In this document: positions 210-17,481 of the stretch, piece after piece
How positions within the stretch are numbered: position 1 is the stretch's first letter
How the letters are laid out: every line of letters begins with the position of its first letter
NCBI GenBank assembly: GCA_016937935.1
Contig: JAFGVO010000264.1
Coordinates: forward strand, 1-48,259
Source: Deltaproteobacteria bacterium
GTDB lineage: Bacteria > Myxococcota_A > Polyangia > JAAYKL01
Length of the DNA: 48,259 nt
Direction: 5' to 3'
Translations under genes and position numbers: made by a program
Notes under the pieces: model-generated
Databases searched by the model: none
Told to the model about the DNA's origin: nothing
The model's input: the letters and a program-made list of their open reading frames with translations, nothing else

Positions 210-2126
210 ATGGGAAAAACTATAGGTATAGATCTTGGAACTACTAACAGCTGTGTGGCTGTTATTGAAGGAAACGAACCAATTGTTGTTACAAATGAAG
301 AAGGTACAAGAACAACTCCTTCAGTTGTTGCGTGGGATGAGCAGGGTGAAACACTTGTTGGTCAGGTAGCCAAAAGACAATCCATTACCAATCCGGAAAA
401 TACAATATTTTCAATTAAAAGATTTATGGGGCGTAAATTTAATGAAGTTGGAGAGGAAGCTAAAATGGTTCCCTACAACATCGAGAAAGCGGCTAACGGT
501 GATGTTGCTGTTGATGTCAGAGGCAAAAAATTTGCTCCCCCTGAAATTTCTGCAAGAGTATTGATGAAATTAAAAAAGGCTGCTGAAGACTATCTTGGAG
601 AAGAGGTAACTGATGCTGTTATTACTGTGCCGGCCTATTTTAATGACTCTCAGCGTCAGGCAACCAAAGATGCGGGAAGAATTGCCGGCCTTGATGTTAA
701 AAGAATTGTCAATGAGCCAACAGCTGCAGCTCTTGCCTATGGACTTGATAAAAAAGAGGAAGAGATTATTGCCGTTTTTGACTTTGGCGGAGGAACTTTT
801 GATATTTCCATTCTCGAAGTTGGTGACAATGTTGTACAGGTTATTTCCACAAATGGTGACACACACCTGGGTGGTGACAATGTTGACAAAGTAATTATTG
901 ACTATCTCATAGCCGAGTTCAAAAAAGATCAGGGAATAGATATTTCTAAAGACAAAATGGTGCTTCAACGTTTGAAAGAGGCTTCTGAAAAAGCAAAAAT
1001 CGAACTGAGCTCTGTTATGGAGACACACATCAATCTTCCATTTCTTACTGCAGATGCAACAGGCCCCAAGCACCTTGACATTAAACTCTCCAGAGCAAAA
1101 TTTGAATCAATGATTTCTAATCTTGTTGAGCGCTCACTTATTCCGACCAAAAAAGCACTTGATGATGCGGGTAAAAGTACCAGCGAAATTAATGAGGTTA
1201 TTCTTGTTGGCGGTTCTACCAGAATCCCTGCTGTGCAGGAGGCTGTTGAAAAATTCTTTGGCAAAAAACCTCATAAAGGTGTTAATCCCGATGAAGTTGT
1301 TGCCCTTGGTGCAGCAGTTCAGGCAGGTGTGTTAGCCGGTGACGTTAAAGATCTCCTTCTTTTAGATGTTACCCCTCTCTCCCTTGGTGTTGAAACCCTT
1401 GGTGGAGTAACAACAAAGATGATTGAACGAAACACAACAATTCCTGCAAAAAAATCAGAGATTTATTCTACTGCTGCTGATAACCAGACATCTGTTGAAA
1501 TTCACGTTCTTCAAGGTGAACGCCAGATGGCTGCGGACAATAAAACTTTAGGCAAATTTCATCTGGAAGGAATTATGCCAGCCCCGAGAGGTGTTCCCAA
1601 AGTTGAAGTTACTTTTGATATTGATGCAAACGGAATTGCACATGTTTCTGCAAAAGATCTCGCTACAGGTAAAGAGCAGAAAATTACAATTACCGCATCT
1701 TCGGGTTTATCTGAAAATGAAATTGACCGTATGGTTAGCGATGCTGAGAAAAACAAATCAGCAGATGAGAAGAAAAGAAAAGAGATTGAGACCCGCAACA
1801 AGGCTGAACAGCTGGCTTACGGAATTGAAAAAACCCTTAGCGAAAATAAAGACAAGCTTCCCGCTGAAGAGGTCACTAATGTTGAAAAAGCTATTGTAAC
1901 ATTAAGAGAAGCGATAAAATCTGAAGATACTGCAAAAATTGAGACTGAAATGGAAAATCTCACAAAAGCATCACATAAAATTGCAGAGCTGGCATATCAG
2001 CAGGCCGGAAGCCCTGAAGGTGCTGGTGTTGCCGGAGCAGCACCAGGAGGAACCGCACCCGGTGGTGAAAATCCTGCTGCCGATGGTGACAGTGATGTAA
2101 TCGATGCTGAGTTCGAAGAAAATTAA
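210..2126 (+). CDS. dnaK: molecular chaperone DnaK (Hsp70)
   Basis: 638-aa ORF with Hsp70 signatures [17 protein letters not shown] and [11 protein letters not shown], plus a Gly/Ala/Pro-rich acidic C-terminal tail. AAGGAG RBS. Confidence 0.98.
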
Positions 2127-2214
2127 GCCTGATTTTCACATCTAATCAATAATAATTCCCCCATTTTAATATCTTTAAATTTAAAAAAATCTAAATAAAT
2201 AAAACCTGAACTTT

Positions 2215-2385
2215 ATCCAAATGGCCTCCGTCCGGATATGATAAGCCAGAAACTATCAACAAGTAATTTAATGTATAATTTCAACACATTACCAATCTTT
2301 AGAAATGGACTCCGTCCGGATATGCTATCCAAATAGAAATGGCCTCCGTCCGGATATGCTATCCAAATGGCCTCCGTCCGGATAT
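2215..2385 (+). repeat. array of four direct copies of a GC-rich motif GG(C/A)CTCCGTCCGGATAT (28-nt unit GGCCTCCGTCCGGATATGCTATCCAAAT)
   Basis: 17-mer copies lie at 2223-2239, 2307-2323 (one mismatch), 2341-2357 and 2369-2385, so start spacings are 84, 34 and 28 nt. Two copies are followed by the palindrome GGATA-TGC-TATCC. The array is intergenic between dnaK and rex. Confidence 0.85.
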
Positions 2386-2486
2386 AGTCGGTTGGTAAAT
2401 TGTACAAATCGTCATAAACTTTATACATCTCCCGCCGTATTTCCTCGCAGGGTTCAATTTTTATTAGTTTGAACTAAAAAAATCAG

Positions 2487-2516
2487 TTGACTTGAAAAAT
2501 AATTAATGCATATTGT
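2487..2516 (+). promoter_or_regulatory. candidate sigma70-type promoter of the rex-hyd cluster
   Basis: TTGACT (2487-2492), a 17-18 nt AT-rich spacer, then ATATTG/TATTGT (2510-2516). It lies about 55 nt upstream of the rex ATG at 2571. Confidence 0.4.
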
Positions 2517-2528
2517 TTCAATGTGAGC

Positions 2529-2544
2529 TGTGAAAAAAATAACA
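2529..2544 (+). promoter_or_regulatory. candidate Rex operator (TGTGAA-N4-TTCACA-like)
   Basis: The site reads TGTGAA-AAAA-ATAACA. One half-site is perfect and the other matches 4/6 of the published Rex box half-site. It sits between the candidate -10 and the rex start codon. Confidence 0.35.
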
Positions 2545-2570
2545 GCGTTACAAAAATAACGAGGTCGAAA

Positions 2571-3194
2571 ATGACACCAAAGAAAATCGCAGAAAAAACA
2601 GTAGAAAGACTAATTGTCATTCATCGAATTCTTGTATCCCAAAAAGCAAATAATATTAAGTTTATCTATTCCCATGAAATTGCAAAACTTTCAGGTTTAA
2701 GCGCTCCACAGATAAGGCGGGATCTCATGCTGGTAGGATACTCGGGAAGCCCGGCCAAAGGCTACGATGTCAGTAAACTTAAAAATACGATAAATACATT
2801 TTTGGGCTTCAAGAAAAATAAAGAGGCTGTACTTGTTGGACTGGGATACCTTGGACGGGCACTTTTAGGATATTTTAACGGTCAGGATTCAAACATCAAA
2901 TTCTCCATGGCTTTTGATATTAATCCCGAACGGGTAAATCGAATCATCTCAGGTGTAAACTGCTATCATATTGATGAAATGGGCTCCCGATTAAGCTCAT
3001 CAAACATAAATATATGCGTTATTGCAGTACCAAAGCAAAGCGCCCAGGAAGTTGCCTGGACCGCTGTGGATAATAAAATAATCTCAATCTTGAACTTTGC
3101 CCCCCAACATTTACGGGTTCCTGAAAATGTTCACGTTGAAAACCTGGACCTCATGACAATGTTAGAAAAAGCGGCTTATTACTCAATGGAATAA
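2571..3194 (+). CDS. rex: redox-sensing transcriptional repressor Rex
   Basis: The ORF track starts at GTG 2523, but ATG 2571 has a GAGG RBS about 7 nt upstream. The N-terminus is a winged helix (SHEIAKLSGLSAPQIRRDLMLVGYSGSPAKGYDV), followed by a Rossmann GLGYLGRAL NAD(H) motif. Confidence 0.9.
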   Translation: MTPKKIAEKTVERLIVIHRILVSQKANNIKFIYSHEIAKLSGLSAPQIRRDLMLVGYSGSPAKGYDVSKLKNTINTFLGFKKNKEAVLVGLGYLGRALLGYFNGQDSNIKFSMAFDINPERVNRIISGVNCYHIDEMGSRLSSSNINICVIAVPKQSAQEVAWTAVDNKIISILNFAPQHLRVPENVHVENLDLMTMLEKAAYYSME

Positions 3195-3216
3195 TTTTTT
3201 ATAAAGGGTGGAATAT

Positions 3217-3708
3217 ATGAGTGAAATTAAACAGATAGAAAACATTTTAGAAAATTACAAAGACTCAGGGAGAGAAATGCTGATTCCTGTTCTTCAAGAG
3301 GTTCAGGAAGAGATCGGCTATCTTTCAAAAGATGCAGTAATTATTATTGGAAAGAGCCTTAAACTCCCCACAAGTAAAATATACGGGGTGGCTACATTTT
3401 ATAATCAGTTCAGGTTTCAGAAACAGGGAGCCTGTCATCTTCAGATATGCAGAGGAACAGCTTGCCATGTTAAAGGTTCAGCAAATATTCTCGAATCTTT
3501 TGAAAGAAATCTGAATATTAAAGCCGGTGAAACTACAAAAGATGGAAAATTTTCCATCGAAGTTGTCGCCTGCATCGGTGCTTGCGGTCTGGCTCCTGTC
3601 ATTGCTGCAAACGGGGAATTTCACGCAAGGCTTAAAGAAGACAATGTAAATGGAATAATTGATAGCTACAAATCAGATGAACCAACTGAAAAGAAGGTAA
3701 AACAGTGA
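3217..3708 (+). CDS. hydC: [FeFe]-hydrogenase NuoE-like [2Fe-2S] subunit (HydC/HndA type)
   Basis: Thioredoxin-like [2Fe-2S] ferredoxin pattern C-x4-C ... C-x3-C (CRGTACHVKG ... ACIGACGLAP). ATG 3217 is preceded by AAGGGTGG. The ORF track starts 9 nt earlier at GTG. Confidence 0.9.
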   Translation: MSEIKQIENILENYKDSGREMLIPVLQEVQEEIGYLSKDAVIIIGKSLKLPTSKIYGVATFYNQFRFQKQGACHLQICRGTACHVKGSANILESFERNLNIKAGETTKDGKFSIEVVACIGACGLAPVIAANGEFHARLKEDNVNGIIDSYKSDEPTEKKVKQ

Positions 3709-5711
3709 TGAATTTAAAACCTCTTACAAAAATATTTAACGACGAAAGATGTACTCATAAGATTGAAACACCCTGCAGACACCTTTTAACATGTTTAAAT
3801 GAAGGACCTGTCTGTTATAAAAGTGACGATTCAATCAAAAATGTTGAAAACTGGAAAAGTGAAACCCTTAGAACAGCAACCCAAAAACCTCTAATAATTG
3901 TAGGTTCGGGCACCTGCGGTTTAGGAGCAGGATCACAAAGCAGTTATGATAAAATAAAAGAGTATCTTGAAGCTAACAATATTGATGCGGAACTCGCAAA
4001 AACCGGATGCATCGGTCTTTGCGCCAAGGAACCCATTGTTGATATTCAACTACCTGGAAAAAACAGAATCTCTTTTGGAATGGTAACGGAAAAAAGAGTT
4101 GAAAACCTGCTCGAATCAGTATTGGCAGGAACCCTGCCTAAAAAAGGTGTTGAAATATTATATCAGCATAGAAACGATAATGAAAGTTTTGCGGATGTTC
4201 CTTTTATTGATGAACATCCGTTTTTTAAATTTCAGAAAAGAGCGGTTCTTCTAAATTGCGGAGTAAATGACCCCGTAAGTATTGCAGACTATATTGCAAG
4301 AGGAGGCTATGCATCCCTCAGTAAAATTCTTCATTCTAAAACCAGAGATGAAGTTTGTGATGATGTTGAAAAAAGCGGTCTCAGAGGACGAGGTGGTGGC
4401 GGTTTCCTTGCGGGCAAAAAATGGAAGTTCGCTAAAAATACAGCTGCAGATCAAAAATATATGATTTGTAATGCTGATGAGGGAGATCCAGGGGCATTTA
4501 TGGATAGAGCCGTAATTGAAGGTGACCCCCACTCCCTGCTTGAAGGCCTTTCTATAGCAGCCTACGCAATTGGAGCATCTGTTGCGTACATTTATATCAG
4601 AGCAGAATACCCCCTTGCAATCAAACATCTTAATATTGCAATTGAGGACTCAAAAGCAAATGGCCTTTTAGGTTCCAATATTTTAGACAGTGGTGTTAAT
4701 CTGGAAATTAAAATCAAAAAAGGTGCCGGCGCTTTCGTATGTGGTGAAGAGACTGCTCTTATTAACAGTATCGAAGGTAAGCGGGGAATGCCGAGGCCAC
4801 GTCCGCCCTTCCCCGCTGTTAGTGGTCTGTTTGGCAAACCCACAATTATCAACAATGTCGAAACCCTTGCAAATCTTCCCGGAATTTTCAGAAACGGTGT
4901 AGAGGTATTTGCAAAATCAGGCACAGCCACAAGCAAAGGTACAAAAGTTTTTGCACTCTCGGGAAAAGTTGAAAATACAGGTCTTGTTGAAGTTGAGATG
5001 GGCACCACCATGAGAAAAATAGTTTTTGATATTGGAGGTGGTATTCCTTTTAACAATGAGTTCAAAGCTGTACAGATTGGGGGACCGTCCGGTGGCTGTA
5101 TTCCCCTTAGCCATTTAGATACTGAAGTTGATTATGAATCAATAAAAGAACTTGGTGCCATGATGGGTTCAGGAGGGCTTGTTGTAATGGATAACAAAAC
5201 CTGCATGGTTGATGTTGCAAAATTCTTTATGGATTTTATTCAATCAGAAAGTTGCGGCAAATGTATCCCCTGCAGAGAAGGCACTAAAAGAATGCTTGAG
5301 ATTCTTGAGAGAATAACTAAAGGAAGAGAGTCTGAAAGCAATATTGATGCTCTGGACAGATTCAAAGGCATTACCGAAATTGAAAAATTATCAAAAGTAA
5401 TTCAGAGCACAAGTCTCTGCGGACTTGGACAGACTGCACCAAACCCGGTTTTAAGTACACTCAAGTGGTTTAAAAATGAATACGAAGAACATGTCTTTGA
5501 ACGAAAATGCAGAGCAGGTGTCTGCAGAGAACTCGTTAAATATGAAATAAACAGCGACGCATGTACAGGGTGTATGCTCTGTATGAAAAAATGCCCTGTG
5601 GATGCGATCATGGGCGCAAAAAAGACAGCTCATTATATTATTGAGGATAAATGTATAAAATGCGGTGTCTGCTTTGATGTATGCAAACAAAATGCTGTTA
5701 AAGTAGCCTGA
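3705..5711 (+). CDS. hydB: [FeFe]-hydrogenase NuoF-like flavoprotein subunit (HydB/HndC type)
   Basis: N-terminal Trx-like [2Fe-2S] region. NADH/FMN motifs GLRGRGGGGF and CNADEGDPGAF. NuoF [4Fe-4S] motif SCGKCIPCREG...LCGLG. C-terminal 2x[4Fe-4S] ferredoxin (CTGCMLCMKKCP, CIKCGVCFDVC). The start overlaps the hydC stop (GTGATG). Confidence 0.92.
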   Translation: MMNLKPLTKIFNDERCTHKIETPCRHLLTCLNEGPVCYKSDDSIKNVENWKSETLRTATQKPLIIVGSGTCGLGAGSQSSYDKIKEYLEANNIDAELAKTGCIGLCAKEPIVDIQLPGKNRISFGMVTEKRVENLLESVLAGTLPKKGVEILYQHRNDNESFADVPFIDEHPFFKFQKRAVLLNCGVNDPVSIADYIARGGYASLSKILHSKTRDEVCDDVEKSGLRGRGGGGFLAGKKWKFAKNTAADQKYMICNADEGDPGAFMDRAVIEGDPHSLLEGLSIAAYAIGASVAYIYIRAEYPLAIKHLNIAIEDSKANGLLGSNILDSGVNLEIKIKKGAGAFVCGEETALINSIEGKRGMPRPRPPFPAVSGLFGKPTIINNVETLANLPGIFRNGVEVFAKSGTATSKGTKVFALSGKVENTGLVEVEMGTTMRKIVFDIGGGIPFNNEFKAVQIGGPSGGCIPLSHLDTEVDYESIKELGAMMGSGGLVVMDNKTCMVDVAKFFMDFIQSESCGKCIPCREGTKRMLEILERITKGRESESNIDALDRFKGITEIEKLSKVIQSTSLCGLGQTAPNPVLSTLKWFKNEYEEHVFERKCRAGVCRELVKYEINSDACTGCMLCMKKCPVDAIMGAKKTAHYIIEDKCIKCGVCFDVCKQNAVKVA

Positions 5712-5732
5712 AATCAGTCTGGAGTTAATAAG

Positions 5733-7457
5733 ATGTGTAAAATACAAATAAATGGAAAAATTGTTGAAGCTGAAGAAGGGACAATGCTTCTTGATACCCT
5801 TAGAAATAATGGAATCAAAGTACCTACCCTTTGCAATGTGAAAGGCCTTTCACCAACTGGTGCATGCAGAATGTGTGTTGTTGAAGTAGAAGGAATGAAT
5901 AATCTTGTTCCAAGCTGTGCATTTCCCGTATCTGACGGAATGAGCGTTAAATCCCACTCTCCAAGAGCCCTTGAGGCCAGAAGAACAATTATAGAACTGC
6001 TTCTTTCAAGTCACCCCGATGATTGTAACTACTGCTCCCGGAATGGAAGCTGCGAACTTCAGTCAATGGCTGTAGAGCTTGGCATCAGACAACGAAGATA
6101 CAAGGGAAGTTACAAAAAAAGAGATCTTGACGTGTCAAATCCGGCAATTGTCAGAGACCCTGAGAAATGTATCCTCTGCGGAAGATGTGTACGCGTCTGT
6201 GAAGAGATTCAGCACGTTGCAGCAATAGATTTTACAGGAAGAGGGAGCGGTTCGGTTGTTGAGACATCATTTAATCAGGGGCTGAATGTTTCGAGCTGTG
6301 TTAACTGCGGTCAATGTCTGCTGGTCTGCCCGACCGGTGCCCTTGTTGAAAAAAGCAATGTTGATGATGTAATGAAAGCTATTATGGATAAAGACAAGCA
6401 TGTTGTATTGCAGCATGCCCCAAGTGTCTCTGTATCTCTTGCAGAAGAGTTCGGTGTAAAAGCTGGTAAAAATATTGAGGGAGAACTCGTAGCAGCAGCA
6501 AGAATCATTGGCTTTGACCGGGTTTTTGACACATCGTTCAGTGCGGACTTAACAATAATGGAAGAGGCTGCCGAACTTGTAGACAGAGTTGTAAATGGCG
6601 GAAAACTTCCCATGATGACGTCATGCTCCCCTGGATGGATTAAATTTGTAGAGCAGTTTTATCCTGAATTCATCGACAATTTGAGCACCTGTAAAAGTCC
6701 ACAGCAGATGATGGGCGCAATAATAAAAAGTTATTATGCACAAAGAGAAAACATCAATCCTGAAAATATAATCAGCGTTGCTGTTATGCCCTGTACCGCT
6801 AAAAAATTTGAAGCCAGCCGTAACGAGATGACGGTTAACAATATTCCTGATGTTGATTATGTATTGACAACAAGAGAGTTTGCAAAACTCATAAGGTGCC
6901 ATGGAATAAATATTGAACACATAGCACCAGAAGAACCTGATACTCCTTTTGGCGAGAGAAGCAGCGCAGGCAAACTGTTTGGAGCTTCGGGGGGAGTTAT
7001 GGAGGCAGCTATAAGGACAGCATACTTCATGATTACCGGAAAATCCATGACTGATTTAAAAGTTCAAATATTAAGAGGTCAAAAGGATCTGAAAGAAACA
7101 AGTGTTACAATTGGAGATAAAACAATTAATGTTGCTGCGGTAAGCGGACTTGAAAACGCTCAAAAACTTTTAGATGATATTAAAAACAAAAAAAGAGATT
7201 ATCAGTTTATCGAAGTTATGACATGCCCCGGAGGTTGTATCAATGGTGGAGGTCAGCCATTTAACATGGACATTGAAACTGTTAAAAAAAGAGCCTCCGC
7301 AATTTATAATGTTGATAAAAATGAGACGCTTAGACAGTCCCACGAAAACAGATCAATAAAAAGACTGTACGATGAATTTTTAATTGAGCCCCTGTCACAC
7401 AAAAGTCATGTGCTTCTTCACACAAAATATATGGACAGATCTCAGATATTAAAGTGA
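5733..7457 (+). CDS. hydA: [FeFe]-hydrogenase catalytic subunit (CpI-like M3 architecture)
   Basis: N-terminal [2Fe-2S] domain, His-ligated [4Fe-4S] (HPDDCNYCSRNGSC) and 2x[4Fe-4S] (CILCGRCVRVC, CVNCGQCLLVCP). H-cluster motifs are L1 TSCSPGW (non-canonical), L2 MPCTAKKFE and L3 EVMTCPGGCINGGGQP. GGAG RBS. Confidence 0.93.
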   Translation: MCKIQINGKIVEAEEGTMLLDTLRNNGIKVPTLCNVKGLSPTGACRMCVVEVEGMNNLVPSCAFPVSDGMSVKSHSPRALEARRTIIELLLSSHPDDCNYCSRNGSCELQSMAVELGIRQRRYKGSYKKRDLDVSNPAIVRDPEKCILCGRCVRVCEEIQHVAAIDFTGRGSGSVVETSFNQGLNVSSCVNCGQCLLVCPTGALVEKSNVDDVMKAIMDKDKHVVLQHAPSVSVSLAEEFGVKAGKNIEGELVAAARIIGFDRVFDTSFSADLTIMEEAAELVDRVVNGGKLPMMTSCSPGWIKFVEQFYPEFIDNLSTCKSPQQMMGAIIKSYYAQRENINPENIISVAVMPCTAKKFEASRNEMTVNNIPDVDYVLTTREFAKLIRCHGINIEHIAPEEPDTPFGERSSAGKLFGASGGVMEAAIRTAYFMITGKSMTDLKVQILRGQKDLKETSVTIGDKTINVAAVSGLENAQKLLDDIKNKKRDYQFIEVMTCPGGCINGGGQPFNMDIETVKKRASAIYNVDKNETLRQSHENRSIKRLYDEFLIEPLSHKSHVLLHTKYMDRSQILK

Positions 7458-7465
7458 TTTAAATT

Positions 7466-9478
7466 ATGGTTACAGGTAAAGACATCAATAAGGCATTTGT
7501 TCGTACTGCAAAAGAAAAATGCAGAGTGTGCTACACCTGCGTACGAGAGTGTCCCGCAAAAGCAATACGAATTTTTGACGGTCAAGCAGAAATAATTGCA
7601 GACCGCTGTATTGCCTGTGGTAATTGCGTTAAAGTATGCAGCCAGAATGCAAAACAGATAGTTGATTCTTCGGAGTGTATTAATGAAATTTTAAACAGTT
7701 CTAAAAAAGTTGCCGCCTGTATAGCACCAAGTTTTCCAGCAGATTTTTCTGATGTTGAACCAGAAATTTTAGTGGGAATGTTAAGTAAACTTGGCTTTGA
7801 TTATATAACAGAGGTCTCTTTTGGTGCTGATCTTGTTGCTTATAAATATAAAGAACTCATTGAAAATAGTCATGGAGAAAAATTTATTGCAACAACATGC
7901 CCTGCAATTGTTGCCTATATTGAACGATATCAGGTTGACGCATTTAAAAATCTGGCTCCAATAGTTTCACCGATGATTGCACACGCCAAAGTTTTGAAAC
8001 AGGAGTATGGGGAAGAAGTTAAATTAGTTTTTATTGGTCCATGTATCGCAAAAAAAATGGAGGCTGCATCACATAATCTTTCCGGCTATATTGATTGCGC
8101 TATAACTTTTAAAGAATTAAAACAGCTCTTCGAAGATAAAGATATTACTGCTCAAAATTCATTTAAGAAAAATTTTGACCCGCCTTATCCAGGTCTTGGT
8201 TCTCTGTTTCCTCTTAACGGTGGAATGCTGCAGGCATCAGACATCAAAGAAGATCTTGTTCTTGGGGATATAGTGGCAGCAGACGGATTATCAGAATTTG
8301 TAAGTGCAATTGGAGAATTTGCAGATGGCAATATGGATGTAAAATTACTTGAAGTTCTCTCATGCGAAGGATGCATTATGGGACCGGGTATGACAACGGA
8401 CGAGCCAAAATTCAGAAGACGTTCCAGGGTTAGCAACTATGTTAGAAACAGTGGCTACAATACAAACAACAAAGAACATCTGCTTTATTTCAACAAATAT
8501 AAAAATATTGATCTCTCAAGAAATTATACACTTTTTGATCAGAGAATTCCTTCCCCGTCAAACGAAGAATTGAACGCACTTTTAAAACGACTTGGAAAAG
8601 AGAGTGAAAAAGATGAACTTAACTGTCAGGCCTGTGGATATACAACATGCCGTGAACATGCTATCGCAATTCATAAAGGTCTTGCAGAAGATGAAATGTG
8701 TCTGCCCTTTGTAATTGAAAAATTAAAAAATACGGTTAACGCCCTCTCTGTTTCACATAAGCATCTTGAAGATACAAAAGATCAGCTTCTCCACTCGGAA
8801 AAACTGGCAAGCATGGGACAGCTTGCCGCAGGTGTTGCTCACGAGCTTAATAACCCCCTTGGTGTTGTTTTAATGTATTCACATCTGCTATTAGATGATC
8901 TGGATAAAGATACCGAACTCTATCAGGATCTGAAAATGATAACTCAACAGGCGGAACGGGGTAAAAAAATAGTGGCAAATCTTTTGGATTTTGCAAGAGA
9001 GAATAAAGTTTTAATTGAAGAAGTTGATATAAAAACCATACTCAAAAGAGCAGTTCAAAGCACAATTATTTCTGATAACATTAATGTTTCATTTAATTTT
9101 AATCACAAAAGCAAAACGTGCGAAATGGACAGGGATCAGATGCTTCAGGTGTTTACCAATATAATTTCAAATGCAAATGCGGCAATGGAAAATGGTGGTA
9201 AACTTATTATTTCAACGGATGACAATGAGGCGGAATTAAGAATAAGATTTAGTGACAATGGAGAGGGAATTGAAAAAAATAATTTAGATAAAATTTTTCA
9301 ACCATTTTTCACAACCCGCAAAATGGGTAAAGGTACCGGCCTTGGACTTGCTGTCTCTTATGGAATCGTAAAAATGCATAGAGGTCGGATTGAAGTAAAA
9401 TCGAATGCAGACAAAGAAAAAGGTGAGACAGGAAGCGAATTCCAGGTATGTCTCCCCAGGTTTGCAAAACTTGGATAA
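7466..9478 (+). CDS. hydS: HydS-type (putative sensory) [FeFe]-hydrogenase domain fused to a histidine kinase
   Basis: Domains in order:
- 2x[4Fe-4S] ferredoxin (CRVCYTCVRECP, CIACGNCVKVC).
- Short H-domain with variant motifs TTCPA, GPCIAKKME and EVLSCEGCIMGPG.
- A Cx2Cx4Cx16C motif (aa 387-412).
- HisKA H-box GVAHELNNPL.
- HATPase N-box NIISNANAAM, G1 DNGEGI and G2 GTGLGL.
I noticed no TM helices and no PAS domain. Confidence 0.85.
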   Translation: MVTGKDINKAFVRTAKEKCRVCYTCVRECPAKAIRIFDGQAEIIADRCIACGNCVKVCSQNAKQIVDSSECINEILNSSKKVAACIAPSFPADFSDVEPEILVGMLSKLGFDYITEVSFGADLVAYKYKELIENSHGEKFIATTCPAIVAYIERYQVDAFKNLAPIVSPMIAHAKVLKQEYGEEVKLVFIGPCIAKKMEAASHNLSGYIDCAITFKELKQLFEDKDITAQNSFKKNFDPPYPGLGSLFPLNGGMLQASDIKEDLVLGDIVAADGLSEFVSAIGEFADGNMDVKLLEVLSCEGCIMGPGMTTDEPKFRRRSRVSNYVRNSGYNTNNKEHLLYFNKYKNIDLSRNYTLFDQRIPSPSNEELNALLKRLGKESEKDELNCQACGYTTCREHAIAIHKGLAEDEMCLPFVIEKLKNTVNALSVSHKHLEDTKDQLLHSEKLASMGQLAAGVAHELNNPLGVVLMYSHLLLDDLDKDTELYQDLKMITQQAERGKKIVANLLDFARENKVLIEEVDIKTILKRAVQSTIISDNINVSFNFNHKSKTCEMDRDQMLQVFTNIISNANAAMENGGKLIISTDDNEAELRIRFSDNGEGIEKNNLDKIFQPFFTTRKMGKGTGLGLAVSYGIVKMHRGRIEVKSNADKEKGETGSEFQVCLPRFAKLG

Positions 9479-9488
9479 AGGTAAAAAT

Positions 9489-9914
9489 ATGAGTAAAACA
9501 GAAACTGAAAACAAAAAAATGGAAATATTGCTTGTTGACGATGATATTGATTTTTTAGAACAGCAGAAAATAATGCTGACATCTAACGGGTATGATGTAA
9601 TTTTAGCAAATACCAGAATTGATGCCGAAAAGATTCTGGAAAATAAAAAACCGGACTTCGCTATTATTGATCTGATGATGGCTGAAAAAGATGATGGATT
9701 TGTTTTAAGCTACCATATTAAAAAATTGTACCCTGATGTTCCTGTGATAATTCTTACAGCTGTTACAAGCGAGACCGGCCTTGAATTTGACCTTACCGGA
9801 AAAGATAGTGCCTGGGTAAAAGCTGATGCTCTAATGTCGAAACCCGTAAGATTTGAACAGCTTCAAAGGGAGATTGAAAGACTCTGTAAAAATAAAGTAT
9901 CTACCGATTTATAA
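9489..9914 (+). CDS. single-domain CheY-like response regulator (no output domain)
   Basis: The ORF track begins at 9405 inside hydS. ATG 9489 lies 10 nt after the hydS stop. Receiver residues: LLVDDD, phospho-acceptor in AIIDLMM, LTAV and SKP. About 141 aa with no DNA-binding domain. Confidence 0.85.
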   Translation: MSKTETENKKMEILLVDDDIDFLEQQKIMLTSNGYDVILANTRIDAEKILENKKPDFAIIDLMMAEKDDGFVLSYHIKKLYPDVPVIILTAVTSETGLEFDLTGKDSAWVKADALMSKPVRFEQLQREIERLCKNKVSTDL

Positions 9915-9944
9915 ACTTCTTGGATTTTCTACAACTGCTTTTTA

Positions 9945-11123
9945 ATGCAGGCAGTAAAGGTTAGTGAGATGAAATACCAGTTTAAAATAGTTATTACTGA
10001 TGATGAAGAGGGTATGCGTCTTGGAATCAAGCGGGCATTGGAATCAGAGGAGTGCAGAGTCTTTGATCAGGATGTTGAAGTTTCATTTGAAATATTTACA
10101 GCCGCAACAGGTGAAGAGTGCCTTGAAATTGCAGAAAAAGAATCTCCTCATCTCTACTTTTTAGATTATAAATTGCCGGGTATCAACGGCATTGAAACCC
10201 TTTCGAAGCTTAAACAGATTAATACGGACAATAATTATCTGGTAATAATGATGACAGCCTATGCGTCACTTCAAACTGCTGTAGCTGCAACAAGAGAAGG
10301 GGCATATGATTTTCTGGCGAAGCCATTTACCCCCAAAGAGGTAAGAGTCGCTTTAAAAAAATCAGTCCGTACTCTAATTTATCAGCTCCAGGCACAAAGA
10401 TTAAGAGAAGAAAAAAAGCAGGTAAGATTTGAATTTATTTCAGTACTCTCCCATGAATTAAAAGCCCCGATCGGCGCAGTGGAAGGATATTTAGATCTCA
10501 TAAGCGAAGGATATGTAACAGATAAAGAGTCAACAGACCGTATTTTAAGCAGATGCAGAACCAGGTTAAACGGAATGAGGAAACTCATTTTCGATCTTAT
10601 TGATATGACCAGGATTGAGGCTGGCACAAAAAAAAGGAATGTCAGTTTAATCAATTTCTACCCTGCTTTAAGTGAGGCAGTTGAACTTGTGGAAGCCCCA
10701 AGACAGAAACGAAATATTAAAATAAATATTACCTGCGATGAAACATTAACTTTCAATTGTGACAGAACAGAAATTGATATCGTTTTGAACAATCTAATTT
10801 CTAACGCAGTAAAATATAATAAAGACAATGGTACAGTTTCTATCACTGTTTACAAAAGAGAGACTCAACTTTTTATTGAAGTTTCAGACACTGGAATTGG
10901 CCTTACACAAAAAGAGGCAGACAAACTTTTTGGCGAATTTGTACGAATTAAAAATTCAAAAACAACTTCCATTGAAGGCTCAGGACTCGGCCTGTCAACT
11001 GTAAAAAAGATTGCGGAACTCTATAAAGGATCTGCTACTGTAAAAAGTGTTCCGGATGAGGGAACTACATTTACTGTTATTTTAAACGAGGGGGAGCATG
11101 AAGGGGCAGGTTATGAAAACTGA
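9945..11123 (+). CDS. hybrid receiver-histidine kinase (N-terminal REC, then HisKA + HATPase)
   Basis: REC domain (ITDDEEG, FLDYKLPG, MMTAY, AKPF), then H-box SVLSHELKAPI, N-box NLISNAVKYN, G1 DTGIGL and G2 GSGLGLS. An alternative start is ATG 9969 (MKYQF). No sensory or TM region. Confidence 0.85.
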   Translation: MQAVKVSEMKYQFKIVITDDEEGMRLGIKRALESEECRVFDQDVEVSFEIFTAATGEECLEIAEKESPHLYFLDYKLPGINGIETLSKLKQINTDNNYLVIMMTAYASLQTAVAATREGAYDFLAKPFTPKEVRVALKKSVRTLIYQLQAQRLREEKKQVRFEFISVLSHELKAPIGAVEGYLDLISEGYVTDKESTDRILSRCRTRLNGMRKLIFDLIDMTRIEAGTKKRNVSLINFYPALSEAVELVEAPRQKRNIKINITCDETLTFNCDRTEIDIVLNNLISNAVKYNKDNGTVSITVYKRETQLFIEVSDTGIGLTQKEADKLFGEFVRIKNSKTTSIEGSGLGLSTVKKIAELYKGSATVKSVPDEGTTFTVILNEGEHEGAGYEN

Positions 11124-12513
11124 GAATACAGAACAGAACATAATTGATGAGAATAAAATTTATTCTATTCTTCATAAAGGTTCTAAATATTCATCACAGG
11201 AGATACTTGATATCCTTAAAAGTGCCAGGGACCTGAAGGGCCTTAACATGGATAGTGTTTCAGCATTAATGACTGTTGAGGATGAAACACTTTTAAACGA
11301 AATTTTTAAAACAGCAAAAGAGATCAAAAATAAAATTTACGGACAGCGGCTGGTTATTTTTGCACCTTTATACGTTTCTAATTTATGCAATAATGAATGT
11401 ACCTATTGTGCATTTCGTGCTGGTAACAAAAACATTAAAAGAGTTGCTCTGACACAGGAACAAATTCAAGATGAAACACTTCACCTTATCAATGAGGGGC
11501 ACAAGCGAGTTCTTCTTGTAGCCGGAGAATCATATCCCCAAAACAAGTTTGAATATATTCTCCATGCAGTTGATTCTGTTTATAAAACAAAACATGCAAA
11601 TGGAGAAATAAGACGAGTCAACGTTAACATCGCGCCACTTGATCTTGCCCAGTTTAAAGAGCTGAAAAAAAGGGACATCGGCACTTATCAGCTTTTTCAG
11701 GAGACCTATCATAAGGCTACCTACAAAGATGTTCATACCAAAGGTAAAAAAGCAGATTACGATTATCGCCTTACTGCAATGGACAGGGCCATAGAAGCAG
11801 GTATTGACGATGTTGGAATTGGTGTTCTGTTTGGACTTTACGACTGGAAATTTGAAGTACTGGCACTGTTACAGCATACACAACATCTTGAAAATAAATT
11901 TGGTGTAGGTCCTCACACAATAAGTGTTCCAAGGATTGAACCTGCAGGAGGCTCAAGTTATTCTCTTAATCCCGAAAATGCGGTTTCTGATTCTGACTTT
12001 AAAAAGCTTATTGCAATCTTAAGAATAGCTGTCCCCTATACCGGAATCATAATGTCCACAAGGGAGAACAGCGAATTAAGAAGTGAAACCTTTGCCCTAG
12101 GTGTTTCACAAATATCCGCAGGAAGCCGAACAAACCCTGGAGGCTATAGTGACGAGAATGCTGATGCCCAGGCCCAGTTTTCACTTGGTGATCATCGCTG
12201 CCTTGATGAAGTTATAAAAGACATAGCATCAATGGGTTACTTCCCATCATTTTGTACGGGCTGTTACCGCCTTGGACGAACAGGTGCTGATTTTATGGAT
12301 CTTGCAAAACCCGGAGATATAAGAAATCACTGTGACCCCAATGCCATTTCAACATTCATGGAATACCTTATGGACTATGCTTCTGATGAAACAAAAAGTG
12401 CAGGATTAAAAGCAATTGAAAAAGCGTGTAAAACCATGGAGCCCATACCTGCCCAAAGATCCCGCAAATTTATTGAAAAAATTAAAAGTGGTGAACGTGA
12501 TGTCTACTGTTGA
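11098..12513 (+). CDS. hydG: [FeFe]-hydrogenase maturase HydG (radical SAM tyrosine lyase)
   Basis: Radical SAM CNNECTYC (CX3CX2C) plus the C-terminal CX2CX22C motif (CTGCYRLGRTGADFMDLAKPGDIRNHC) diagnostic of HydG. The start could be ATG 11113. It overlaps the end of the kinase gene. Confidence 0.9.
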   Translation: MKGQVMKTENTEQNIIDENKIYSILHKGSKYSSQEILDILKSARDLKGLNMDSVSALMTVEDETLLNEIFKTAKEIKNKIYGQRLVIFAPLYVSNLCNNECTYCAFRAGNKNIKRVALTQEQIQDETLHLINEGHKRVLLVAGESYPQNKFEYILHAVDSVYKTKHANGEIRRVNVNIAPLDLAQFKELKKRDIGTYQLFQETYHKATYKDVHTKGKKADYDYRLTAMDRAIEAGIDDVGIGVLFGLYDWKFEVLALLQHTQHLENKFGVGPHTISVPRIEPAGGSSYSLNPENAVSDSDFKKLIAILRIAVPYTGIIMSTRENSELRSETFALGVSQISAGSRTNPGGYSDENADAQAQFSLGDHRCLDEVIKDIASMGYFPSFCTGCYRLGRTGADFMDLAKPGDIRNHCDPNAISTFMEYLMDYASDETKSAGLKAIEKACKTMEPIPAQRSRKFIEKIKSGERDVYC

Positions 12514-13915
12514 AAATAAAATTTTGACCAGACTTGAAAGTGATCAGCTTGGACAACTTGAAATACCTGCAGATGCCCTTTATGGAATTCATACTTTAAG
12601 GGCACTTGATAATTTTAAAATATCAAATCGCAAAGTGAATCCGGTTCTGGCAAAAGCTGTTGCCACAGTCAAGCTTGCAGCTGCGAGGACAAATCGAAAT
12701 ATTGAAAAAAACGGGGAAAATTTATTAAAGTGGGATGGGATTATTAATGCCTGTGAACAACTTGCAGGTGGTGTCGGACTTGATCAGATAATAGTAGATG
12801 CTTTAAGTGGCGGAGCCGGAACAAGCATCAACATGAATGTAAATGAAGTTATCGCCAATATCACCCTCAAAGATATGAATTTAAATCCGGGAGACTATGA
12901 TAAAATATCACCTTTAAACCATATAAACTTACACCAGTCCACCAATGATGTTTTTCCGACAGCTATTAAACTGGCTTCAATTTGGGAGATTCAGTTACTT
13001 GAACAGAGCATAATTTCCCTTCAGGAGGAGTTTCAGAAAAAAGAGAAAGAGTTTTCTGATGTAGTTAAAATTGGACGCACGGAATTTCAGGATGCTGTGC
13101 TTACAACTTTAGGAAAAACAATGTCTGCAGCGGCTGATGCATTTGCCAGAGACAGATGGAGAGTTTATAAATGCATTGAACGACTCCGTGTAATAAATTT
13201 AGGCGGTACTGCTATCGGCACAGGAATTGGTGCTCCTAAAAAATACATATTTCAGATCTGTGATGAATTACGGGCAATAACAGGAATCGGTTTCGCAAGA
13301 GGTGAAAACCTCATGGATACAACACAAAACTGTGATGTCTTTGTTGAGGTATCAGGTATTTTAAAAGCCCTTGCAACATCCCTGATAAAAATATCAACGG
13401 ATTTAAGAATTCTTTCAAGCGGACCTGACAGCGGTTTTGGAGAGATTATTATTGAAGCAAAACAGGCAGGCTCATCCATTATGCCTGGCAAAGTTAATCC
13501 CGTAATTCCGGAAGCTGTTACCCAGGGTGCCATGCAGGTTATTGGAAACGACACAGTTATAACAATTGCAGCATCTTCGGGGAATCTTGAAATTAATCAA
13601 TTTTTACCATTGATTGCGGATAATCTCTTAACATCAATACAGCTTCTGACAAACAGTGTTACCTCACTAGGTGAAAACTGTATTTCAACTTTAAAGGCAG
13701 ATAAAAAAAGATGCCGCAAAAATATTGAATCCGGCACAGCTATCGCAACTGCCATTGTTCCTGTTTTAGGTTATGATGAGGTCTCAAGATTGACATCCAA
13801 AAGCATTAAAGAGGGTATTCCTCTTATACAGCTTGTTGTAAATGAAACCTCTTTATCAAATGAAGATATTGAAAAATTAACAACTCCTACAGCAGTCTGC
13901 AAACTGGGATATTAA
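12500..13915 (+). CDS. aspartate ammonia-lyase / fumarase-family lyase homolog
   Basis: The ORF track starts at 12416 inside hydG. ATG 12500 (MSTVENK) overlaps the hydG stop by 14 nt. Class II fumarase/aspartase signatures are TNDVFPT and GSSIMPGKVNP. No radical SAM motif. Confidence 0.85.
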   Translation: MSTVENKILTRLESDQLGQLEIPADALYGIHTLRALDNFKISNRKVNPVLAKAVATVKLAAARTNRNIEKNGENLLKWDGIINACEQLAGGVGLDQIIVDALSGGAGTSINMNVNEVIANITLKDMNLNPGDYDKISPLNHINLHQSTNDVFPTAIKLASIWEIQLLEQSIISLQEEFQKKEKEFSDVVKIGRTEFQDAVLTTLGKTMSAAADAFARDRWRVYKCIERLRVINLGGTAIGTGIGAPKKYIFQICDELRAITGIGFARGENLMDTTQNCDVFVEVSGILKALATSLIKISTDLRILSSGPDSGFGEIIIEAKQAGSSIMPGKVNPVIPEAVTQGAMQVIGNDTVITIAASSGNLEINQFLPLIADNLLTSIQLLTNSVTSLGENCISTLKADKKRCRKNIESGTAIATAIVPVLGYDEVSRLTSKSIKEGIPLIQLVVNETSLSNEDIEKLTTPTAVCKLGY

Positions 13916-13916
13916 A

Positions 13917-15155
13917 ATGTCAAAAAAAATAAGAACACCAAAAGGTATGCGGCTTCACATTGGTATTTTTGGCAGGCGCAATGTGGGAAAGTCCACAGTA
14001 TTAAACGCGCTTACAAATCAGAATGTGTCAATAGTTTCAAACCAGGCCGGCACAACAACCGACCCTGTTGAAAAACCAATGGAGCTTTTGCCATTAGGCC
14101 CGGTTATTTTTATTGATACCGCAGGAATCGATGACGAAGGTGATTTGGGTGAACTAAGAATTCAAAAAAGCATGAACGCTGTAAAGCGAACAGATATTGG
14201 TATTATAGTTTCTGACAGCGGAAAAATTGAAAAATTTGAACAGAGACTCATTACAATCTTTAAAGAATATAAAATTCCATTTTTTATAATTTTTAACAAA
14301 AGTGATCTTCAGGAGATTTTTCAGGAGACCGCTAATTATCTTGAAAATGAAAAAATATCATACGTAAAAACAGGTGCTAAAGATGGCATTGGAATAAACC
14401 TGATTAAAAACGAAATTATAAAGACCGCCCCTGAAGATTATCTTGCAGGCCAGCCAATTGCAGGTGATTTGGTTCCTCCTGGAGAGACCGCAATACTTGT
14501 TGTACCAATAGATAAAGAGGCTCCCAAAGGCCGTCTTATTCTTCCTCAGGTGCAGACAATCAGAGATCTTCTTGATTCTGACACAGTGGTAATGGTTGTA
14601 AAAGAGCGTGAACTCTCCCATGCATTGGATAACCTCAAACGTCCCCCTGCCCTTGTCATTACAGACTCTCAGGCATTTTTAAAAGTTGCCGCCGACACTC
14701 CTGACAATATACCAATAACAAGTTTTTCAATTCTTTTTGCCCGCTTAAAAGGAGATCTTGCCACCCAGGTAAAAGGAACCTTTGCAATTGACACATTAGA
14801 AAACGGAGACAAAATTCTTGTGGCAGAAGCGTGCACTCACCATCCAATCGGAGAAGATATCGGAAGAGTAAAAATACCAAGATGGATTACATCCTACTCA
14901 GGTAAAGATATTATTTTTGACACAGTCCAGGGACACGATTTTCCACCAAACTTAAAAGATTACAAACTGGTAATCCACTGCGGCGCATGCATGTTTAATA
15001 AAAAAGCCGTACTATCAAGAATCCTCGAGTGCAGTCTGGCGGGCGTACCAATAACCAACTACGGTCTAATAATAGCAAAAAGCCTTGGCATCTTAAAACG
15101 AGTCCTTAAACCATTCCCCGCCGCATACAATATCTTTGAAGAACTGGACGAGTAA
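13917..15155 (+). CDS. hydF: [FeFe]-hydrogenase maturase GTPase/scaffold HydF
   Basis: GTPase motifs GRRNVGKST, DTAG and NKSD. C-terminal cluster-binding CTHHP ... HCGACMF (CxH...HCxxC). The start is 1 nt after the preceding stop. Confidence 0.9.
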   Translation: MSKKIRTPKGMRLHIGIFGRRNVGKSTVLNALTNQNVSIVSNQAGTTTDPVEKPMELLPLGPVIFIDTAGIDDEGDLGELRIQKSMNAVKRTDIGIIVSDSGKIEKFEQRLITIFKEYKIPFFIIFNKSDLQEIFQETANYLENEKISYVKTGAKDGIGINLIKNEIIKTAPEDYLAGQPIAGDLVPPGETAILVVPIDKEAPKGRLILPQVQTIRDLLDSDTVVMVVKERELSHALDNLKRPPALVITDSQAFLKVAADTPDNIPITSFSILFARLKGDLATQVKGTFAIDTLENGDKILVAEACTHHPIGEDIGRVKIPRWITSYSGKDIIFDTVQGHDFPPNLKDYKLVIHCGACMFNKKAVLSRILECSLAGVPITNYGLIIAKSLGILKRVLKPFPAAYNIFEELDE

Positions 15156-15245
15156 TTTCTACTGTTAAATTTTAGGCTTAAATTTCAAGATTTAAAGAGA
15201 GTTGATATTGGTAGTATTTTTTCATCGCCAACAAGGACAAAGATG

Positions 15246-17189
15246 CTAATCTATTATAATGCCTTTATCTTTATTTAGACAATTAGCGCTGCAGGTAGAG
15301 GTACCGCTACCGTTATTGTAGCCCTCGTCGCATTGCTCGTCACCGTTTAGTATACTGTCACCACAATAAGGACCCATTTTACACTCCACACTGCATTCAT
15401 CGTATCCAGGGTCACCTTCAACGTTGTTATCCCCGTGGTCACATTCCTCTTCGCCAATGACTATTCCATCTCCGCACACCGAGTTACAACTGGTTTGGGA
15501 AGACTGAAATCCGTTGAGGGTAAGCATGTAGTTTGATGCGCCAAACATGCGTTCTGCATGAAACACCTTGAGTTCGTAGAGTTGGCCTTTTTCGAGTCCG
15601 AGATTCACCTCAAGGGTTCCGATTGATACCCCTGTAGATGTTCCGTCTGCGTTTAATGTCAGCGTACCTTCAAGCCTGGAATGCATTCCCCCAAGATCTA
15701 AAACCAGTGTGTTTTTGATAAACACCCACACATCATCATCACCTGAAAAAGTCAGCTCTTCGCCGCCCTTGAATTCAAACCAGGTGGTCACCACAGAGGT
15801 AAAGGCACCGCCGCTCGAATTTGTTCCACTGACATCGGTTGTATGCCACCCGCCGTTTTCATCACCTGCCAGGGGAACAAATGAGTTGACGGTTGAGGGT
15901 TCACATGTGTAGGGATCCATATTTCTACTGTCAAACATGTACACATCGTCAGATCCGTCTTGCCTGGCCAAACATAAATTTTTCAGCACTGTGTAGGCAG
16001 GATGCCACTCAACATAGTCCGGGGTTCCGTAGTTTTGTCCGGGGGTGCCCGTATACCACTCTGCAAATGATTCTGCACTGTAAAATTGATTGCCAAAAAG
16101 ACAGTCTGAAGCGGCGCCGCCGGGGGCGCCCAAACAATTTCCGCTTGCTACAGGAATGCCGTTTTTTAATTTGTTTTCTACAAGCCCGGCTGTTCCCTGA
16201 CCACTATATATTTGAAAATCCGGATGGGCCAGATCTGTGTTTGAACTGTTCCCGTAAATAAAATCTCTGTACACAATAGGAACCAGCAATTTATCGGGAA
16301 GCGCCTCTGTTTCCAGTTCGCACTGCCATCCTTTTTCAATTTTGCATTCGCTGCTGCAGCCATCGTTGTCGATATTATTTCCATCATCGCACTCATATGT
16401 GTCCCCCGGCAGAATCATACCATCGCCACACCGAGAAGAGCATTCGCCATCTACACACACCGGCTCCATTTTACAGGTAGGCGAGCATCCGCTGCCGGGC
16501 ATATTGGAACCCGTATCGCATGCCTCGTCGCCTTCGACCACACCGTCACCACACTGCGTACGCCTGCACACCCAATCCTCTTCCGCCGGGCAAATCCAGT
16601 ACCGAGGCCGATCTTCGGAATCATAAATAATATCAGTTTCAACCTCACAGATGTCGCTGCACCCCGCCCCGGTTATCTTGTTATTGTCCGTATCAACACC
16701 GTCATCACATTTCTCAGGACCCGAAACAACACCGTCACCACACATACCGGTTAACGCATAGCAGTAATCTGCACACTGATCACACGCACCTTCGGACATA
16801 AAGGGGGAATCCCATGCGCACATACCGGCATTTTCTGAACCTTCCTGCCCGCAGACGCACGGAATGCAACTATTGGGAGAGTAATTGTTCGTGTCTGCAA
16901 CTTGCGTATCCGCATCTATGTTTTGTGTGTCGGTGTCTGTATTTTTTTTACTAGCCAGACTACCGTCCCAGTAAAATTCACCCTTGGGGCATGATGGGGT
17001 TACTGTTATGGTATCGCTGTCAGTACTTATACCGGTTGTATCTGGATTGACACCGCGGCTATCTGTATCAGAATCGTTAATACTATCACTATCATTTTCG
17101 TTTTCTTCACTCAAGTCATCGCTGCAGCCAGCCAGAAAGGTGAAGACAAAAAGTGTCATCATCCAAATTAATACAAATATATTTCTCAT
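15246..17189 (-). CDS. secreted lipoprotein with Myxococcus-type cysteine-rich repeats and a fibro-slime (PA14-like) domain
   Basis: The likely start is ATG 17189 (MRNIFVLIWMMTLFVFTFLAGC, with lipobox LAGC and a GGAGGAG RBS); the ORF track extends to 17243. Content: an Asp/Ser/Thr-rich linker, repeated CGDG..(E/D).CD.G....DGCS..C units, and a central VPIVYRDF...HPDF...FSGDDDVWVFIKNTLVLDLGGMH segment typical of the fibro-slime domain. Confidence 0.8.
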   Translation of the reverse strand: MRNIFVLIWMMTLFVFTFLAGCSDDLSEENENDSDSINDSDTDSRGVNPDTTGISTDSDTITVTPSCPKGEFYWDGSLASKKNTDTDTQNIDADTQVADTNNYSPNSCIPCVCGQEGSENAGMCAWDSPFMSEGACDQCADYCYALTGMCGDGVVSGPEKCDDGVDTDNNKITGAGCSDICEVETDIIYDSEDRPRYWICPAEEDWVCRRTQCGDGVVEGDEACDTGSNMPGSGCSPTCKMEPVCVDGECSSRCGDGMILPGDTYECDDGNNIDNDGCSSECKIEKGWQCELETEALPDKLLVPIVYRDFIYGNSSNTDLAHPDFQIYSGQGTAGLVENKLKNGIPVASGNCLGAPGGAASDCLFGNQFYSAESFAEWYTGTPGQNYGTPDYVEWHPAYTVLKNLCLARQDGSDDVYMFDSRNMDPYTCEPSTVNSFVPLAGDENGGWHTTDVSGTNSSGGAFTSVVTTWFEFKGGEELTFSGDDDVWVFIKNTLVLDLGGMHSRLEGTLTLNADGTSTGVSIGTLEVNLGLEKGQLYELKVFHAERMFGASNYMLTLNGFQSSQTSCNSVCGDGIVIGEEECDHGDNNVEGDPGYDECSVECKMGPYCGDSILNGDEQCDEGYNNGSGTSTCSANCLNKDKGIIID

Positions 17190-17481
17190 TTTACTCCTCC
17201 GAACATTATTGGTGAGGGACAAACACATCCCCATACCATTCATTATTACTTTTAGTTGTTATTTTCCTTATAAATAACGAAACAAAAGCAAAAACCGCAC
17301 ATAGGTAAAACAAAGTATCTTTTTCTGATTTCTGAATGTGGCATTTGCCCTCCTAAACGCATATTATATTGTTCATGAAATAAATATCGCATTTAAGCGG
17401 GAAAATTAACAAAGAAACTTTATGTTTTGTATAAATCTGAGGAACCAGGACCTTTCAGAAAAGAGCTTTTTATCTGTTTGT

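Follow-up and report, generated by a model that had tools for sequence, protein, structure and literature searches.

The stretch of DNA analysed here (the window) comprises 48,259 nucleotides of contig JAFGVO010000264.1 from a Deltaproteobacteria metagenome-assembled genome (MAG, GCA_016937935.1) and carries an [FeFe]-hydrogenase (hyd) gene unit, in which a gene of the fumarase/aspartase superfamily lies between the maturase genes hydG and hydF. We consider it likely that the product of this middle gene is a functional aspartate ammonia-lyase, that it belongs to a clade dedicated to the maturation of [FeFe]-hydrogenases, and that the enzyme is a source of ammonia for the bridge of the H-cluster; both the aspartase activity of the hyd-linked clade enzyme and its role in maturation in vivo we infer. 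In the proposed scheme the lyase gene would share a transcript with hydG and hydF at the end of the unit, with translational coupling on both sides, so that the enzyme would be made when and where the maturases are. It would cleave L-aspartate to fumarate and NH4+, after which the T-protein of the glycine-cleavage system would combine NH4+ with methylene-tetrahydrofolate and reduced lipoyl-H-protein to form aminomethyl-lipoyl-H-protein, and the latter would give the CH2-NH-CH2 unit of the dithiomethylamine (DTMA) bridge, assembled on HydF. NH4+ may additionally stimulate the GTPase activity of HydF, and HydE, encoded elsewhere in the genome, would still be needed.

For a long time it was asked where the bridgehead nitrogen of the H-cluster comes from; the accepted maturation scheme now includes the aspartase link. 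The gene order hydG-aspA-hydF was reported in Pelobacter carbinolicus and given a metabolic interpretation (Aklujkar et al. 2012, PMC3543383). More recently, 15N from aspartate was shown to reach the DTMA nitrogen once E. coli AspA had been added to a defined maturation system, with NH4+ entering via the T- and H-proteins of the glycine-cleavage system (Pagnier et al. 2024, J Biol Chem 300:107760, PMC11736057); the same work names aspA as the ammonia-lyase most closely associated with hydF, and a maturation scheme of 2025 repeats the aspartase ammonia model (PMC12501116). With the arrangement published in 2012 and the ammonia explanation in 2024, the locus is real, ordinary and already known: one more example, from a low-GC MAG that probably belongs to Myxococcota, and not a new idea. 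An earlier reading of the window (the original prediction) had proposed the lyase as a supplier of ammonia for the azadithiolate bridge, which our analysis supports and which is the explanation found in print (PMC11736057, PMC12501116); its remark that no role had been assigned to such a gene has been out of date since 2024 (PMC11736057). A phylogeny of the lyases is absent from the 2024 paper, and our additions, a separate hyd-linked clade as recovered in the tree and its putative signature residues, are modest.

Identity and coupling of the three genes

HydG (11098-12513, plus strand), the radical-SAM tyrosine lyase responsible for the Fe(CO)2(CN) synthon, matches TIGR03955 with 533.9 bits (cut-off 312), in agreement with Pfam, and contains the motifs CNNECTYC (CX3CX2C) at residue 97 and CX2CX22C at residue 386. 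HydF (13917-15155, plus strand), the GTPase scaffold for completion of the 2Fe subcluster and its DTMA bridge, reaches 553.7 bits against TIGR03918 (cut-off 326) and combines the Pfam domains MMR_HSR1, HydF_dimer and HydF_tetramer with the P-loop GRRNVGKS and the motifs CTH and HCGAC. The gene between them (12500-13915, plus strand) encodes 471 amino acids with the domains Lyase_1 (PF00206, 264 bits) and FumaraseC_C (PF10415, 36 bits), the SS loop GSSIMPGKVNP at residue 324 and TNDVFPT at residue 148; both domains together with the signature GSSxMPxKxN define a member of the fumarase/aspartase superfamily (class II lyases).

The lyase gene begins with the ATG at 12500 and thereby shares 14 nt with hydG, the TGA of which ends at 12513; the TAA of the lyase ends at 13915, leaving a gap of 1 nt before the ATG of hydF at 13917. 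A TTG at 12416 was discarded as the start of the lyase because its homologues begin at ATG 12500. For hydG an alternative start exists (ATG 11113 instead of 11098), which has the better Shine-Dalgarno spacing; with either start the upstream kinase gene overlaps the 5' end of hydG. The original prediction had described HydG and HydF by the motifs quoted above, the middle gene as a superfamily lyase with GSSIMPGKVNP and TNDVFPT, and the coupling as an overlap of 14 nt upstream and a gap of 1 nt downstream: family models and Pfam bear out the assignments, all quoted motifs are present, and the coupling can be read directly from the sequence.

Conserved aspartase active-site residues

The lyase scores 573.7 against NF008909, the subfamily model named 'aspartate ammonia-lyase' (cut-off 510). 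This model was rejected as being specific for the hyd type, as E. coli AspA scores 823. The best matches of the lyase in the PDB are aspartases (3OCF with 383 bits, AspB 1J3U with 371 and E. coli AspA 1JSW with 348; phmmer E-values 1e-110 for 1J3U and 8e-103 for 1JSW), the class II fumarases following at about 289 bits; its identity to canonical AspA genes of the same phylum is about 41-44%. In the numbering of AspB, the residues T101, S140, T141, N142, T187, S318, M321, K324 and N326 are unchanged in the window lyase and invariant in 81/81 members of the hyd-linked clade described below, and at S319 the window lyase has Ser, the clade as a whole either Ser or Thr. More variation is seen at position 188: the window lyase has E, the clade Q in 45 and E in 36 of its 81 rows, E. 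coli AspA has Q, and AspB as well as the fumarases have H. As judged from the alignment, every known aspartate-binding or catalytic residue of the characterised aspartases is retained in the window lyase.

That the gene might encode a fumarase was ruled out: it reads NPVIPE instead of NPTQxE and GRT[QE] instead of GRTH, it groups with the aspartases, and the genome has its own FumC. The latter (GRTHLQDATP, NPTQAE), whose gene adjoins sucC, is the sole other class II member in the genome.

A separate clade and its signature residues

A phylogeny, which the original prediction had suggested as a check, was calculated by maximum likelihood from 113 sequences, rooted with fumarases and supported by the Shimodaira-Hasegawa approximate likelihood ratio test (SH-aLRT). 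All hyd-linked lyases, including that of the window, fall in a single clade of 81 rows (SH-aLRT 100), distinct from the housekeeping AspA; the canonical clade, comprising E. coli AspA, 3OCF and the canonical AspA genes of the same phylum, is separate (SH-aLRT 99), and none of these same-phylum genes is linked to hyd genes. About 15 residues are near-invariant in the hyd-linked clade and absent from canonical AspA, namely A214, R217, R219, W220, K224, E227 and R228, which form the motif A..RDRWR..K..ER, and further Q175, Q179, E182, R267, E269, N277, D279 and E283. The replacement of QDAVP by QDAVL was considered as a marker of all hyd-linked lyases and rejected, for it marks the subclade of the window alone.

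The putative signature patch could be a docking surface or merely a clade-specific interface. This leads to the alternative that the hyd-linked aspartases, as a distinct orthologous family limited to HydF-encoding genomes, act as a specialised maturation factor, which would bind to HydF, the T-protein or the H-protein and deliver ammonia locally, or which would catalyse a related addition or elimination on another substrate, or a subtly different reaction. Besides the signature residues, the stop-start coupling to hydF kept across phyla speaks in its favour, as does E188, a position near the substrate amino group in AspB, where E occurs in 36/81 clade members and in 0/9 canonical sequences. 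We nevertheless regard this alternative as rather unlikely: the unchanged aspartate-binding and catalytic residues argue for the ordinary reaction, E. coli AspA suffices in vitro (PMC11736057), and the signature residues may belong to the tetramer interface rather than to a docking surface. Likewise, no fusion of lyase and HydF was found among 65 same-strand pairs, in which the long open frames lie in different reading frames.

Linkage to maturase genes and co-occurrence with HydF

The neighbourhood statistics likewise proposed in the original prediction were obtained from the 80 best relatives in a scan of one genome per species (44-59% identity, more than 15 phyla), by searching 8 kb around each lyase by tblastn with the window's own proteins. 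The linkage is conserved, with at least one hyd maturase gene in 69/80 relatives and hydF in 63/80. Where enough downstream sequence was available, hydF follows the lyase directly (50/71 loci), and a median of 9 nt separates the stop of the lyase from the point where the HydF match begins (53 loci). The exact order hydG-lyase-hydF occurs in 21 of the 80 and all three maturases in 35. Syntrophotalea carbinolicus, Solidesulfovibrio, Paenibacillus wynnii and Clostridium caldaquaticum are among the cultured carriers of clade members.

Co-occurrence was analysed in an evenly drawn sample of 151 genomes of the phylum, in which a hyd-type lyase was defined by at least 46% identity to the query. Such a lyase is encoded in 16/25 HydF-positive and 0/126 HydF-negative genomes (Fisher p = 1.3e-15), and in 12 of the 16 carriers it lies directly upstream of hydF. 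The linkage between lyase and hyd genes is real and ancient. In the same sample, canonical AspA (TIGR00839, at least 635 bits) is also enriched in HydF-positive genomes, with 6/7 carriers being HydF-positive (Fisher p = 7e-5), which may reflect a shared anaerobic lifestyle or shared ancestry; in none of these carriers does it share a contig with hydF.

Linkage as such could also point to metabolism. According to the interpretation of Aklujkar et al. (2012, PMC3543383) for the same hydG-aspA-hydF order, aspartate catabolism would be coordinated with H2 metabolism, with fumarate as an electron sink or carbon source and aspartate providing nitrogen; the value of fumarate to anaerobes was raised by Pagnier et al. 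(2024, PMC11736057), too. It is in keeping with such coupling that the first gene of the unit is rex, whose product senses the NADH/NAD+ ratio, and that a class II fumarase is encoded in the genome. The linkage with its stop-start coupling, however, is to hydF and not to hydA, many loci containing the lyase and hydF without hydA within 8 kb, and the fermentation of aspartate needs no separate clade confined to HydF-positive genomes from more than 15 phyla that differ greatly in metabolism. We therefore give this explanation a low probability, somewhat below that of the specialised factor. That a housekeeping aspartase came to lie between hydG and hydF by chance, functionally unlinked to them, is highly improbable, given linkage and co-occurrence far beyond chance and canonical AspA genes of the same phylum that form another, not hyd-linked clade, even though the window lyase, as the only aspartase homologue in a 95%-complete MAG, may also serve general metabolism. 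The original prediction had named as evidence against a maturation role the combination of a hydE elsewhere in the genome and a lyase clustering with housekeeping aspartases without hyd linkage; the former is indeed the case (see below), the latter is not, as the lyase belongs to a separate and strongly hyd-linked clade.

HydF was found in 0 of about 30 genomes sampled from the same class, as compared with 24 genomes from other classes of the phylum. The nearest neighbour of the window lyase in the tree is from a Pirellulales MAG, while the bin itself belongs to Myxococcota according to DnaK, so that the hyd unit as a whole may be a lateral acquisition.

Weighing a proposed supply of ammonia to the bridge

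For the favoured reading, a working aspartase that provides ammonia for the DTMA bridge, the genome encodes the acceptor pathway: gcvT (381.9 bits) and gcvH (164.9 bits) are adjacent on contig C430 and both above their cut-offs. Organisms carrying aspA are said always to possess sdaA or ilvA, too (PMC11736057). In this MAG, 95% complete in 493 contigs, no match to PF03313 (Fe-S L-serine dehydratase, sdaA) was found, and the best match to TIGR01127 (ilvA, threonine dehydratase) reaches 59 bits against a cut-off of 379; the hyd-linked aspartase may thus be the organism's only one of the three ammonia-lyase types of the 2024 paper.

Several observations weigh against this reading. The window lyase scores 454.9 against the aspA equivalog model TIGR00839 and thereby remains below its cut-off of 681.2; three further members of the hyd clade likewise pass NF008909 and fail TIGR00839, and E. 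coli AspA and AspB pass both. As a discriminator, the TIGR00839 score was discarded as useless in this middle range, the genome's FumC reaching 438 as compared with 455 for the lyase. The terminal branch of the window lyase is long (0.62 vs a median of 0.25). Its amino acid composition is also unlike that of the rest of the alignment, and both peculiarities probably are an effect of the 38% GC genome. Nine of the 25 HydF-positive genomes in the phylum sample encode no hyd-type lyase, which must therefore be accessory. Free NH4Cl supported maturation as well in the 2024 experiments (PMC11736057), so that a lyase is not strictly required in vitro, and the enzyme used there was the housekeeping AspA of E. 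coli, which belongs to a different clade from the hyd-linked lyases. In the literature we found neither an assay of any enzyme of the hyd-linked clade nor in vivo knock-out evidence.

E. coli AspA has been used in all experiments so far, whereas the genes inside hyd operons form their own clade with its own invariant residues. An enzyme of the hyd clade should therefore be preferred in defined or heterologous maturation systems and in tests of ammonia channelling to HydF.

Location of hydE

As the original prediction had noted from the open reading frames, no HydE-like gene is found in the 48-kb window: TIGR03956 matches hydG alone on this contig, with 69.9 bits, which is below its cut-off. 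Scanning the whole genome with this model yielded a single gene above the curated cut-off (354.6 bits vs 254.6), located on contig C57. It is intact, with 341 residues, a near end-to-end match to the model and the motif CTQDCLYC (CX3CX2C), and its contig fits the bin in GC content (37.4% vs 38.3%) and in tetranucleotide composition (r = 0.97, above the median for contigs of that size). Of the two possibilities raised earlier, hydE elsewhere or replaced, the first is thus correct, and a replacement of HydE by another enzyme is ruled out by this canonical gene in the same bin; the genome encodes the full set, with HydG and HydF in the window and HydE on C57.

The absence of hydE from the cluster, which had been regarded as noteworthy, is not unusual, since 35 of the 80 related loci lack hydE within 8 kb and dispersed maturase genes are common. 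A layout consisting of hydA, the gene for an H-domain protein with kinase (hydS), a receiver and a receiver-kinase recurs upstream of the maturases at six of these loci, from several phyla. In relatives with this layout, hydE is situated between the receiver-kinase gene and hydG; this slot is empty in the window, which we read as a loss.

The remainder of the hyd unit

The trio of hydG, lyase and hydF forms the tail of a ten-gene co-directional unit, rex-hydC-hydB-hydA-hydS-receiver-receiver/kinase-hydG-lyase-hydF, with intergenic spacings of at most 30 nt or overlaps throughout. All genes are on the plus strand. The first, rex (2523-3194; NF003995 with 183 bits, cut-off 126), encodes a redox-sensing repressor and is followed by the NuoE-like hydC (3208-3708) and the NuoF-like hydB (3705-5711), both assigned by matches to the respective families, and by the client hydrogenase gene hydA (5733-7457), with 824.8 bits for NF040763 (cut-off 765) and 502.9 bits for TIGR02512. 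Downstream follow a sensory H-domain protein fused to a histidine kinase (hydS, 7466-9478; Fe_hyd_lg_C, HisKA and HATPase_c), a receiver (9486-9914; Response_reg) and a receiver-kinase hybrid (9945-11123; Response_reg, HisKA and HATPase_c). A consensus scan of positions 2100-15500 gave no convincing internal promoter or terminator and no internal signal before hydG, but was uninformative, with 47 promoter-like sites where 36.5 were expected and 15 terminator-like ones where 11 were.

In HydA, positions 6618-6638 encode TSCSPGW in place of the TSCCPxW of the CpI type, the second Cys being replaced by Ser. TSCSPGW or TSCSPAW is found in 12/31 HydA genes adjoining hyd-type lyases, and the Ser variant is carried by Smithella and by all closest relatives (59-64% identity; Kuenenia, Myxococcales, Planctomycetota and Calditrichota). 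This distribution argues that the variant is a clade trait rather than an error. Convergent with hydF and separated from it by a 90-nt spacer, a gene on the minus strand (15246-17243) encodes a predicted secreted Cys-rich repeat protein of 665 amino acids; its GC content is 42% as compared with about 38% in the surroundings.

Comparison with known systems

AspB of Bacillus sp. YM55-1 (1J3U, 3R6V) and E. coli AspA (1JSW) have the fold family, the GSSIMPGKVNP loop and the substrate-binding residues in common with the window lyase. The latter, however, differs from both in its separate clade, its score below the aspA equivalog cut-off, its clade-specific residues and, in the C2 motif, the variant QDAVL. 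The genomic context differs as well: the window lyase gene is embedded among hyd genes, whereas aspA of E. coli is found among dcuA and ansB.

Closest in gene order is the hndD2 cluster of Pelobacter (Syntrophotalea) carbinolicus, in which hydG, an aspartate ammonia-lyase gene and hydF succeed each other as in the window, and whose copies of hydE lie elsewhere or beside these genes. That cluster, however, serves an Hnd-type client and includes hydE2, whereas the window combines rex, hydCBA and a sensory hydrogenase-kinase relay with a hydE on another contig. The hyd-embedded aspA genes discussed by Pagnier et al. (2024) resemble the window in that an aspartase-family gene adjoins hydF, and the gcvT and gcvH required by their route are present here, too; one difference lies in the second ammonia-lyase, which that paper calls invariable, although neither sdaA nor ilvA was found in the 95%-complete MAG to which the window belongs.

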